A DNA stretch of 64,000 bases from Bacillota bacterium (GTDB taxonomy: Bacteria > Bacillota > Dehalobacteriia > UBA7702): positions 7,208 to 71,207 of the forward strand of contig CAWVFN010000061.1 in the NCBI GenBank assembly GCA_963928475.1, read 5' to 3'. Every line of letters begins with the position of its first letter. Position 1 is the stretch's first letter. The notes below the pieces were generated by a model, which was not told the DNA's origin, did not search any database, and saw nothing but the letters and a program-made list of their open reading frames with translations. The translations under genes and the position numbers were made by a program. Below are positions 5,626 to 7,170 of the stretch, piece by piece.

Positions 5626-5673
5626 TTAATGTAAGGTGTCCAAGAAAAATTCAAAACTATGGAGGTGTTATTT

Positions 5674-7170
5674 TTGGCTAGAGGTTTACTTGTAAACACA
5701 AAACGTACTAGTGCTCTCGGTTTGAATATGTTCACCGAGGAAGAACTTTGGGAAGTCCATCTTGCCACTTTGGACGTAATGAAAAACGTCGGTTTGAAAG
5801 TGGAAAGCAAGGAAGCCAGAGAAGTTTATGACGGTCTTGGCTGCGATGTGAATGAAGAAACTCATATCGTTAAATTCCCCGCTTGGGTAGTGGAAGATGC
5901 AATGCGCGTCGCTCCTCCTAACTATCGCGCTTGCGGTAGAGATCCCGAAAGAGACTGGTATTGTGAATCCGGCCGCACTGGTTTCGTAAACTTTGGGGAA
6001 GCCCTCAATGTTATCGACCCCTATACCCGCGAACGCCGCGACCCCACCATGGATGACCTTTGGAAATCCGTTACCATGATTGACCAGTTGGAAAACATTG
6101 TTGTTTTTGAAAGAAATATCGTTCCTAAAGATGTAGACCCCTTCGTAGGTCAGCTTTATGTTCTGGAAGCTTTCTTGAATAATACTACCAAACCCGGTTA
6201 CATTGGTATGCATGACCCCGAAAATATCAAAGCCGCTTATAAAATGGGCTGCATGGTAGCAGGCTCTGAAGAAGCTTTCAAAGAAAGACCCTTCTTCGGC
6301 ACCAGCACCGACCCGATCAGCCCCTTGGTAGCTCCTGAAGGTGCCACCGATGCTTTGATCCTCGCCACCAAGCTTGGTATTCCCGTAAAAATCAATCCTC
6401 TTGGTATGGCTGGCGGTACCACCTGCGCTCATCTGGCAGGCACTATGGTAACCCACAATGCTGAAGTTTTGGCTATGTTTGTTTTGGGTCAAGCCTTGAA
6501 GAGAGGCGTACCTATGGTATACGGTTCCTCCACCGCTATGATGGACTTGAGAACCACCTGCTCCGCTATGGGCAGCCCTGAAGCCGCTTTATTCAGTGCT
6601 TTCGTAGCCAAGATGGCTCAGTTCTATAAAGTACCCAGCTGGGTATCAGGCGGTTAGTGCGATTCCAAATGTGTTGACGCTCAATCTGCTCATGAAGCCA
6701 CTTTGACAGCTATCTTACCCGCATTGGCAGGTGCCAATATGATTTATGGTATCGGTATGCTGGAAAATGGTATTACTTGGGACTTCGCGCAATTGGTTAT
6801 GCAGCATGAATTTGTTGGTCTTATCCTCAAGACCATCGAAGGCGTTCCTGTTGACGATGAACATCTTGCTGTTCCCGTTATCACGGAAGTTGGCCCTGGC
6901 GGCGAATTCGTAAGCCATATGCATACCTTTGCTAACTTCAAGAACTTGTCCGCTCCTAATCCCAAAATCATCAACAGACAGATGTTTGATAACTGGATGG
7001 CTGGCGGCGGCAAAGACGTTCTCGAACGTTCCTATGAAGTTGCCATCGATATGCTGGAAAACAGCAAACCTCAGAATCCCTTGCCGGAAAATGTTCAGAA
7101 AGACTTGCATAACTTTGTTTTGGAAGCTCAGAAAGAATACGCCGAAAAGAGAGCTGCGGAAAAGAAATAA
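5674..7170 (+). CDS. mttB: Trimethylamine-type corrinoid methyltransferase (MttB family) with an in-frame UAG at codon 333, the putative pyrrolysine codon.
   Basis: ORFs 5659..6657 and 6703..7170 are in the same frame (both 1 mod 3) and are separated by one TAG and 15 sense codons. The combined ~500 aa product has the MttB N-terminus (LNMFTEEEL...), and the TAG context GG-TAG-CDSK...VDAQ matches the Pyl site of archaeal MttB. The likely start is TTG 5674, 8 nt after SD GGAGG. Confidence 0.8.
6655..6657 (+). other. In-frame amber (TAG) codon inside mttB; candidate pyrrolysine codon.
   Basis: Same frame on both sides, no other stops in the 45-nt bridge, and position 333 compared with Pyl334 in Methanosarcina barkeri MttB. 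Confidence 0.7.

Follow-up and report, generated by a model that had tools for sequence, protein, structure and literature searches.

An mttB gene with an in-frame amber codon at the pyrrolysine position, in a choline- and ethanolamine-related locus of a Bacillota bacterium

The mttB gene and its start codon

The stretch of DNA considered here (the window) is 64,000 nucleotides long and comes from a Bacillota bacterium of the GTDB lineage Dehalobacteriia; UBA7702 (assembly GCA_963928475.1, contig CAWVFN010000061.1, positions 7,208 to 71,207 of the forward strand). Positions 5674..7170 on its plus strand very probably form one gene, mttB, encoding a pyrrolysine (Pyl)-containing methylamine:corrinoid methyltransferase of the MttB type, with the pyrrolysine specified by an in-frame amber codon, TAG, at 6655..6657 (+). 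As interpreted here, the gene has 498 codons: codons 1-327, the TAG (Pyl328), 170 further codons, and a TAA. An earlier reading of the letters alone, without database searches (the sequence-only reading), had placed this TAG in frame within a single mttB, and the frame bears this out, the next stop being the TAA at 7168-7170. No other TAG in the 64 kb is both preceded by 100 or more open codons and followed by 60 or more. Gene callers split the gene into a 327-amino acid (aa) open reading frame (ORF) and one of approximately 143-164 aa; the 327-aa product counted from TTG 5674 has exact matches in public assemblies.

Comparisons were made with 80 homologous loci (referred to by L numbers) from species-representative genomes of Bacillota and Desulfobacterota, whose MttB proteins are 48-98% identical to that of the window; 12 relatives with 76-98% identity, together with the window, make up its clade (n = 13). 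These bear first on the start codon, which the sequence-only reading had placed at ATG 5659, making the TAG codon 333. This ATG overlaps a conserved ribosome-binding site (RBS), ATGGAGGTG, and is missing in three relatives (L002, L005, L014). The core of the RBS, GGAGGTG at 5661..5667 (+), is present in 13/13 clade loci, with 8 nt between the end of GGAGG and the TTG at 5674, and an aligned TTG or GTG begins all 13 clade members. Since the ATG is part of the RBS and is not shared by these relatives, the start is better placed at TTG 5674, the TAG becomes codon 328, and the product 498 aa. The expectation of a read-through protein of about normal length survives this revision: it matches residues 14-492 of the 503-residue chain in the Methanosarcina barkeri MttB structures 7XCL/7XCM.

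Family membership and active-site residues

The read-through protein matches the Pfam family MTTB (PF06253; E = 2e-84) and scores 567.6 bits against NCBIfam TIGR02369 (trimeth_pyl), above the 525-bit cut-off of this equivalog model for Pyl-type trimethylamine (TMA) methyltransferases. Its best match among solved structures, by phmmer against the Protein Data Bank, is M. barkeri MttB (7XCL/7XCM; E = 3e-90), in an alignment spanning query residues 18-494 as numbered from ATG 5659. The TAG had been thought to lie next to Pyl334 of the archaeal enzyme, but the amber X of the query aligns exactly with the X (Pyl334) of 7xcl_A. Such an alignment had been set beforehand as a check, and it puts the TAG at the Pyl position; the same column holds Leu in MtgB and in the second MttB-superfamily protein of the window (12144-13586, described below).

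Three residues named as catalytic or corrinoid-contacting in the MttB structure paper (PMC9842639), Gly110, Tyr364 and Gly372, are conserved in the window protein, whose NFGE and MIYGIG align with FGTG and TIYGAG of M. barkeri; Gly110 and Tyr364 are reported as 100% conserved in Pyl-MttBs (PMC9842639). The position of Thr111 is occupied by Glu in the window protein and all bacterial homologs, and that of Met249 by Leu.

The residues following the Pyl position (O) differ among lineages. In the window's clade and its second-copy genes a Cys comes directly after Pyl (window 6658-6672; loci L004-L017), and most of the window's own subgroup have a second Cys four residues later (O-C-D-S-K-C). Elsewhere the motif is O-T-D-S-K-V-P in typical bacteria and O-S-D-A-K-V-P in archaea.

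Conservation of the amber codon

Of the best protein matches, about 75 were 308-333 aa long and spanned just 61-66% of the query, implying that gene callers stop at the same place across the family. At the DNA level, TAG directly follows a conserved GG in 80/80 loci, and TAA, TGA or a sense codon is found there in none. The frame stays open for 158-178 codons past the TAG in 75 of the 80, the exceptions being four loci cut by contig ends and L014. The last of these (AnMBR.bin323, 8325-8490) has a TAA 52 codons past the TAG, the sole exception among the 76 uncut loci, and may represent a pseudogene or an assembly frameshift.

Within the clade, synonymous divergence (dS) runs from 0.6 to saturation, and TAG is nevertheless found in 13/13 members. 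The ratio of nonsynonymous to synonymous divergence (dN/dS) ranges over 0.02-0.16 upstream of the TAG and over 0.07-0.20 downstream. In the 15 codons from the TAG to the first possible restart codon (TTG 6703), changes are almost all synonymous: 10 synonymous and 1 nonsynonymous against L006, and likewise against L008. Other assemblies of the same species (L001, L004, L091) have the identical TAG.

Two public protein entries of 502-503 aa (P0372, P0387) show Q at the Pyl position. A sense-codon (Gln) variant, suggested by P0372, was considered and rejected, as the underlying DNA (L091 158-1669) has TAG; the Q entries are artefacts of gene callers using a TAG = Gln code on short contigs, the DNA having been seen for P0372. 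In one other locus (L084 246-3240), a Pyl-mttB (GG-TAG-ADSK) has immediately downstream of it a non-Pyl paralog in which Val takes the Pyl position (GGGVSDSK); this pair could reflect recent gain or loss of Pyl by duplication.

Pyrrolysine machinery and TAG stop usage

Several observations weigh against the assignment of pyrrolysine. Searches with ARAGORN and tblastn (queries: Desulfosporosinus PylSc, PylB, PylC, PylD, PylSn and MttC) found no pylT, pylS, pylSn, pylB, pylC or pylD in the 64-kb window, which by ARAGORN has no transfer RNA (tRNA) gene of any kind, and no pyl genes within 10 kb of mttB in 12 same-clade loci. A profile search yielded no PylSc homolog on contigs of clade assemblies among the best 120 of 5,264 matches. 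No pyl gene could be assigned to the clade among the candidate loci P0232, P0204 and P0186, which were rejected as canonical mttC-mttB-pyl clusters of unrelated organisms, with MttB only 40-50% identical where measured. Neither an MttC-type corrinoid protein nor a corrinoid:tetrahydrofolate (MT2) methyltransferase was found in the window or the clade loci, and the 64 kb include no B12-binding protein; a cognate MttC nearby is typical of, but does not strictly define, a Pyl-MttB. With regard to function, "Candidatus Formimonas warabiya", which has seven Pyl-MttBs, cannot use TMA (PMC8163858, PMC9768040).

The wider family presents a different picture. ARAGORN places a tRNA-Pyl(CUA) within 10 kb of a homologous TAG-mttB in approximately 20 loci, including those of Desulfosporosinus, Sporomusa, Formimonas and L020. 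Complete pylT-pylSc-pylBCD-pylSn cassettes lie beside TAG-mttB homologs in Desulfosporosinus and Sporomusa, and partial sets in Formimonas and several metagenome-assembled genomes (MAGs). In D. fructosivorans the order is pylT, pylSc, two choline/ethanolamine-kinase-like (CKL) genes, pylB, pylC, pylD, pylSn, mttC, mttB(TAG); such arrangements indicate that this mttB family travels with the cassette.

For the window's lineage itself, the available evidence of a UAG-decoding system is indirect and of two kinds. One is the presence of multiple TAG-mttB genes per genome: three in UBA7702, two in HRGM_4028 (where an mttB is 98% identical to that of the window), and two in "Ca. Cryptoclostridium obscurum". 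The other is a depletion of TAG stops. TAG had been said to terminate only two genes, the HAD gene at 14539 and a GT2 gene at 55254; these are indeed the two credible cases, amounting to 2/48 window ORFs of at least 150 aa (4.2%), and the remark on depletion holds clade-wide, with at most 8/172 TAG stops (4.7%) in clade loci (L002-L017, L059). At similar GC content, TAG stops number 54/242 in Firmicutes loci with a pyl cassette, 22/94 in other Firmicutes loci, and 41/206 in Desulfobacterota loci (20-23%; Fisher p = 0.002 and 2e-7, the clade loci being partly syntenic and not fully independent samples). The near-absence of TAG stops from the clade would fit a possibly more constitutive decoding of UAG than in other Pyl bacteria. 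We infer that pylT and pylSBCD are located elsewhere in this genome, and presumably the corrinoid partner is encoded elsewhere as well.

RNA elements around the UAG

The region 6655-6754 matches the Rfam family PYLIS_3 (RF02510) at 62.8 bits, against a gathering score of 38, and might be taken as independent support for decoding of the UAG. It was rejected as such, the match being driven by conserved coding sequence and not by structure. The model contains few base pairs, two of them non-canonical in the window; its structure was not recovered by RNAalifold from 30 diverse homologs, and shuffled versions of the region fold just as well (z = 0.04). The PYLIS context is weaker than it appears.

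What RNAalifold did recover from the same 30 homologs, instead of the Rfam structure, is a 6-bp mRNA hairpin at 6723..6738 (+), RUURGC-AGGN-GYCAAY, located 68 nt downstream of the UAG. At synonymous third positions, two of its pairs alternate between GC and AU, with concordances of 0.97 and 0.99 among 74 distinct sequences, compared with 0.28-0.73 for control R x Y third-position pairs (n = 38) and 0.50-0.51 for crossed pairs; base-composition bias at third positions (GC3) was considered as the cause of this covariation and is excluded by these control and crossed column pairs. Gene-wide, seven column pairs exceed the covariation threshold, and the two of the hairpin are the only ones nested in one helix. 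The hairpin is absent from non-Pyl paralogs. At +68 nt, it is too distant to contact a ribosome decoding the UAG.

Sigma-54 promoters

The sigma-54 -24/-12 consensus has six exact matches in the window, where 0.46 would be expected and the maximum in 100 shuffles was 2; five of the six are directly upstream of transcription units of this locus. The one before mttB (TGGTATGGTATTTGCA, 5610..5625, +) is kept in L002, L004, L012-L014, L059 and L015-L018. The others precede the choline-kinase-like gene (8460-8475, -), the MthK-like kinase and transporter (8700-8715, +), the non-Pyl MttB paralog and HAD gene (12021-12036, +), and the ethanolamine-utilization (eut) microcompartment operon (14677-14692, +). 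Immediately upstream of mttB, and syntenic in relatives, is a gene for a sigma-54-dependent activator with a PAS sensor, an AAA+ domain and a helix-turn-helix (3942..5465, +; Pfam Sigma54_activat, E = 6.5e-67, with PAS and HTH_50). A terminator-like hairpin with a T-run follows mttB at 7236..7258 (+), so that mttB looks monocistronic. To judge from these motifs, the five promoter units beside the activator gene look like one regulon, and promoters and synteny are retained in many clade members.

Regulation of mttB evidently differs within the clade, since in L006-L010 an extended -10 sigma-70-like promoter (TGTATAAT) replaces the sigma-54 motif approximately 60-75 nt upstream of the gene. In other lineages, a sigma-54 motif is also found 55-65 nt upstream of pylT, in 5/5 loci (Desulfosporosinus, Sporomusa, Formimonas and L020). 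In both Desulfosporosinus loci (L028, L024), pylB is directly preceded by one as well. The sites, for pylT and pylB together, are at L028 1856 and 5550, L024 2108 and 5540, L030 4454, L020 9223(-), and L026 9444(-). The position of these motifs suggests that genetic-code expansion may itself be sigma-54-inducible.

Neighboring genes

Downstream of mttB, on the opposite strand, is a LicA-type CKL gene (7385..8353, -; Pfam Choline_kinase, E = 4e-23). CKL homologs accompany Pyl-mttB at a distance of at most 10 kb in 40/83 other loci as well as in the window; those of Desulfosporosinus lie inside the pyl operon, between pylSc and pylB (L028 2953-4961). Next comes a gene for an MthK-like phosphotransferase of the APH family, approximately 404 aa (8853..10067, +; Pfam APH). 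MthK itself is described in PMC12155760. The homologs of the window protein are labeled "phosphotransferase / homoserine kinase type II"; that of Sporomusa malonica is 40% identical, and Eubacterium limosum is not among the best 120 matches. It is followed by a putative membrane transporter gene (10272..11393, +) without a Pfam match, occupying the EamA position of relatives and of the E. limosum mth cluster, with 30% identity to an EamA-annotated gene of L002.

At 12144..13586 (+) is the non-Pyl MttB-superfamily paralog (MthB-like), with two genes between it and the APH-type kinase gene, hence within three genes of it. The earlier statement that it lacks a TAG is correct: it has Leu at the Pyl position, and it scores 311 against TIGR02369, under the cut-off of 525. 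Its identity to clade counterparts is 73-83% in most loci, and 62-64% in L021, L030, L039 and L046. The HAD-family phosphatase gene that follows (13903..14541, +; Pfam HAD_2) is syntenic in the clade and ends in TAG, with another TAG 8 codons on. Beyond it, at 14677..28639 (+) including its sigma-54 promoter, is the ethanolamine-utilization microcompartment operon: eutS, P, B, C, A, L, T, J and N, an RnfC-like gene, shell proteins, eutQ, an aldehyde dehydrogenase and a phosphotransacylase.

Other features of the window are listed here for completeness. In addition to the eutBC genes at 15668-17935, the window has another eutBC pair (ethanolamine ammonia-lyase) at 39955-42216 (-), which is not part of the microcompartment operon. 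A T-box leader (Rfam, 94.9 bits) at 31237-31479 (-) is upstream of a gene for a pyridoxal phosphate-dependent enzyme (29764-31185) and one for an ABC substrate-binding protein. The organism is a spore-former: the window includes cotJB, adjoined by a large serine recombinase gene (863-2308, 2442-2696), and a collagen-repeat BclA-like exosporium protein gene (52379-54064). The recombinase may be part of a mobile or sporulation-excised element. For the two outermost genes, at 863-2308 and 61785-62642, no public record was found.

Interpretation and alternatives

Interpretation of the TAG as pyrrolysine, first offered from the sequence alone, is supported by its location in the Pyl column, its conservation in all 80 loci, and purifying selection downstream. 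In the mechanism proposed here, mttB would be transcribed from the sigma-54 promoter at 5610-5625 under control of the adjacent PAS-sensor activator. At UAG 6655-6657, Pyl-tRNA(CUA) would compete with release factor 1 and deliver pyrrolysine to the ribosome: read-through would give a 498-aa TIM-barrel enzyme, and termination an inactive 327-aa fragment. Pyl328 and a downstream Tyr (the equivalent of Tyr364) would activate a methylamine, whose methyl group would be passed to a Co(I) corrinoid protein. On the basis of homology and the equivalog model, the presumed substrate is trimethylamine.

Could the TAG be something else? One possibility is a true stop, with a split enzyme made from the 327-aa product and a second piece of about 143-155 aa begun at an internal start: gene callers do annotate two ORFs, and TTG 6703 and ATG ~6739 are possible restart codons. 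A genuine stop, however, would drift among TAA, TGA and TAG, all the more at saturated dS, and the absence of any such drift in 80 loci excludes a real stop; a split gene would not conserve an untranslatable linker, and the conservation of the 15 codons before the first possible start, under in-frame purifying selection, excludes that arrangement. There is also no RBS before 6703, and in the crystal structure the chain runs on covalently through a Pyl residue at the homologous position. A split enzyme is accordingly highly improbable, and decoding of UAG by a tRNA other than tRNA-Pyl, either through lineage-wide reassignment (to Gln, for example) or a generic suppressor, is hardly less so. The latter would account for the unusual rarity of TAG stops in the clade, the failure to find pyl genes near any clade mttB, and the Q in some public gene calls. 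Those calls, however, are the alternative-code artefacts already described; two window genes still end in TAG; many genes would be expected to carry an in-frame TAG, while that of mttB is the only one in 64 kb; and the codon is located exactly at the catalytic Pyl site, in a family whose TAG-bearing homologs have pyl cassettes. Least credible of all is a pseudogene, or a TAG created by a sequencing or assembly error, despite the stop codon itself and the premature TAA in the relative L014. The sequence-only reading had named both as possible refutations. Error is ruled out by the sharing of an identical TAG among independent assemblies and samples (L001, L004, L091) and with all 80 homologs, and a pseudogene, which would show relaxed selection, by dN/dS well under 1 on both sides of the TAG (0.07-0.2 after it, like the N-terminal part).

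A further alternative accepts that pyrrolysine is encoded and differs in the substrate: not free TMA, but a choline-derived tertiary amine, dimethylaminoethanol (DMAE) or its phosphate (DMAE-P), in a route that would take choline stepwise to ethanolamine, without release of TMA, by means of the kinases, the MthB-like paralog, phosphatases and the Eut microcompartment. In this scheme, the MthK-like or CKL kinase would phosphorylate choline to phosphocholine, the MthB-like paralog would convert this to DMAE-P, and Pyl-MttB would turn DMAE-P, a tertiary amine, into N-methyl-aminoethanol phosphate; further reactions, including a HAD or PHP phosphatase, would lead to ethanolamine and the Eut microcompartment. 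Several features of the locus are in keeping with it: the five sigma-54 promoters put Pyl-mttB, CKL, MthK-like/EamA, MthB-like/HAD and eut under one type of control; the synteny is shared by the clade and seen again in Formimonas, Anaerovoracaceae and other Firmicutes; and a CKL gene is frequently near Pyl-mttB (the window and 40/83 other loci). Free TMA would require no kinase. Published observations point the same way. DMAE-P, the product of MthB, is not demethylated further by E. limosum, which has no Pyl (PMC12155760), and tertiary amines are the substrate class thought to need Pyl. Formimonas, with its seven Pyl-MttBs and inability to use TMA, grows on choline, and its authors raise a novel role for bacterial Pyl-MttBs (PMC8163858, PMC9768040). 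Against this, the protein scores above the cut-off of an equivalog model designed for TMA methyltransferases, and it retains the residues to which TMA activation has been ascribed. A positively charged substitution that would bind phosphate was not identified, and the locus encodes no enzyme to remove the last methyl group, that of a secondary amine. Co-regulation could simply arise because TMA, choline and ethanolamine occur together in the gut. Our literature search found no biochemical data on any bacterial Pyl-MttB, and no proposal of a DMAE or DMAE-P role for it. On balance, the route is a tentative suggestion and rather doubtful; with the same reservation, the Pyl-MttB of this gut Clostridia clade, and probably that of many Firmicutes, might act as the second demethylase of a sigma-54-controlled, kinase-dependent pathway.

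Significance

Bacterial Pyl-mttB genes, including those from the gut, are already well documented, and the window gene adds one more lineage: an uncultured Clostridia group of gut, rumen and digester, labeled "Peptococcaceae". What exceeds the routine is an apparent sigma-54 choline/ethanolamine regulon without nearby mttC or pyl genes, the depletion of TAG in the clade, and the covarying hairpin. There is also a practical consequence for annotation. Standard gene callers split the gene or render its TAG as Gln, with the result that Pyl-MttBs are mis-annotated in catalogs of gut MAGs, and the affected catalogs serve the prediction of cardiovascular risk related to TMA and trimethylamine N-oxide (TMAO).

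The substrate of bacterial Pyl-MttBs is an unsettled question (PMC9768040), and a testable hypothesis about it follows from the choline kinases, MthB-like demethylase and ethanolamine microcompartment that sigma-54 appears to control jointly with Pyl-mttB. If the DMAE-P route were true, pyrrolysine would have a role beyond simple methylamines, and complete, TMA-free demethylation of choline could take place in the gut. Two of the observations, the depletion of TAG stops and the hairpin downstream of the UAG, are relevant to the way in which an expanded genetic code is tolerated by bacteria.

Comparison with known systems

One reference is M. barkeri MttB (7XCL/7XCM/7XCN), which shares with the window protein its fold family, the UAG column of Pyl334, and Gly110, Tyr364 and Gly372. 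The motif around the codon differs, GG-O-CDSKC in the window and GS-O-SDAKVP in M. barkeri, as does the setting: the window mttB has no adjacent mttC, mttP, ramA or pyl genes, and is a bacterial gene, apparently sigma-54-driven, inside a choline/ethanolamine locus.

The MthK/MthB/MthC/MthA module of E. limosum (PMC12155760) resembles the window's neighboring genes in arrangement and family: an APH kinase of approximately 400 aa, a transporter at the EamA position, and a non-Pyl MttB. The window locus is without MthC and MthA; E. limosum in turn has no Pyl-MttB, and its cluster contains neither a LicA-type kinase nor a eut operon.

A further comparison is with the bacterial Pyl-mttB clusters of Desulfosporosinus, Sporomusa, "Ca. 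Formimonas warabiya", Thermacetogenium and the gut genera of MAGICdb, a resource reporting 1,071 Bilophila Pyl-mttB genes and 407 genomes in other genera (PMC10653893). Their proteins are 55-61% identical to that of the window, with the TAG at the same position, and they share with it truncated calls of 327-328 aa, a nearby sigma-54 activator, and choline-kinase-like genes. In these clusters the pyl cassette and mttC adjoin mttB, whereas the window and its clade have neither of them within 10 kb, and TAG-stop usage is approximately 22% in their loci and approximately 4% in the clade. The clade stands as a distinct subgroup, its members 76-98% identical to the window protein and marked by the motif O-CDSKC.

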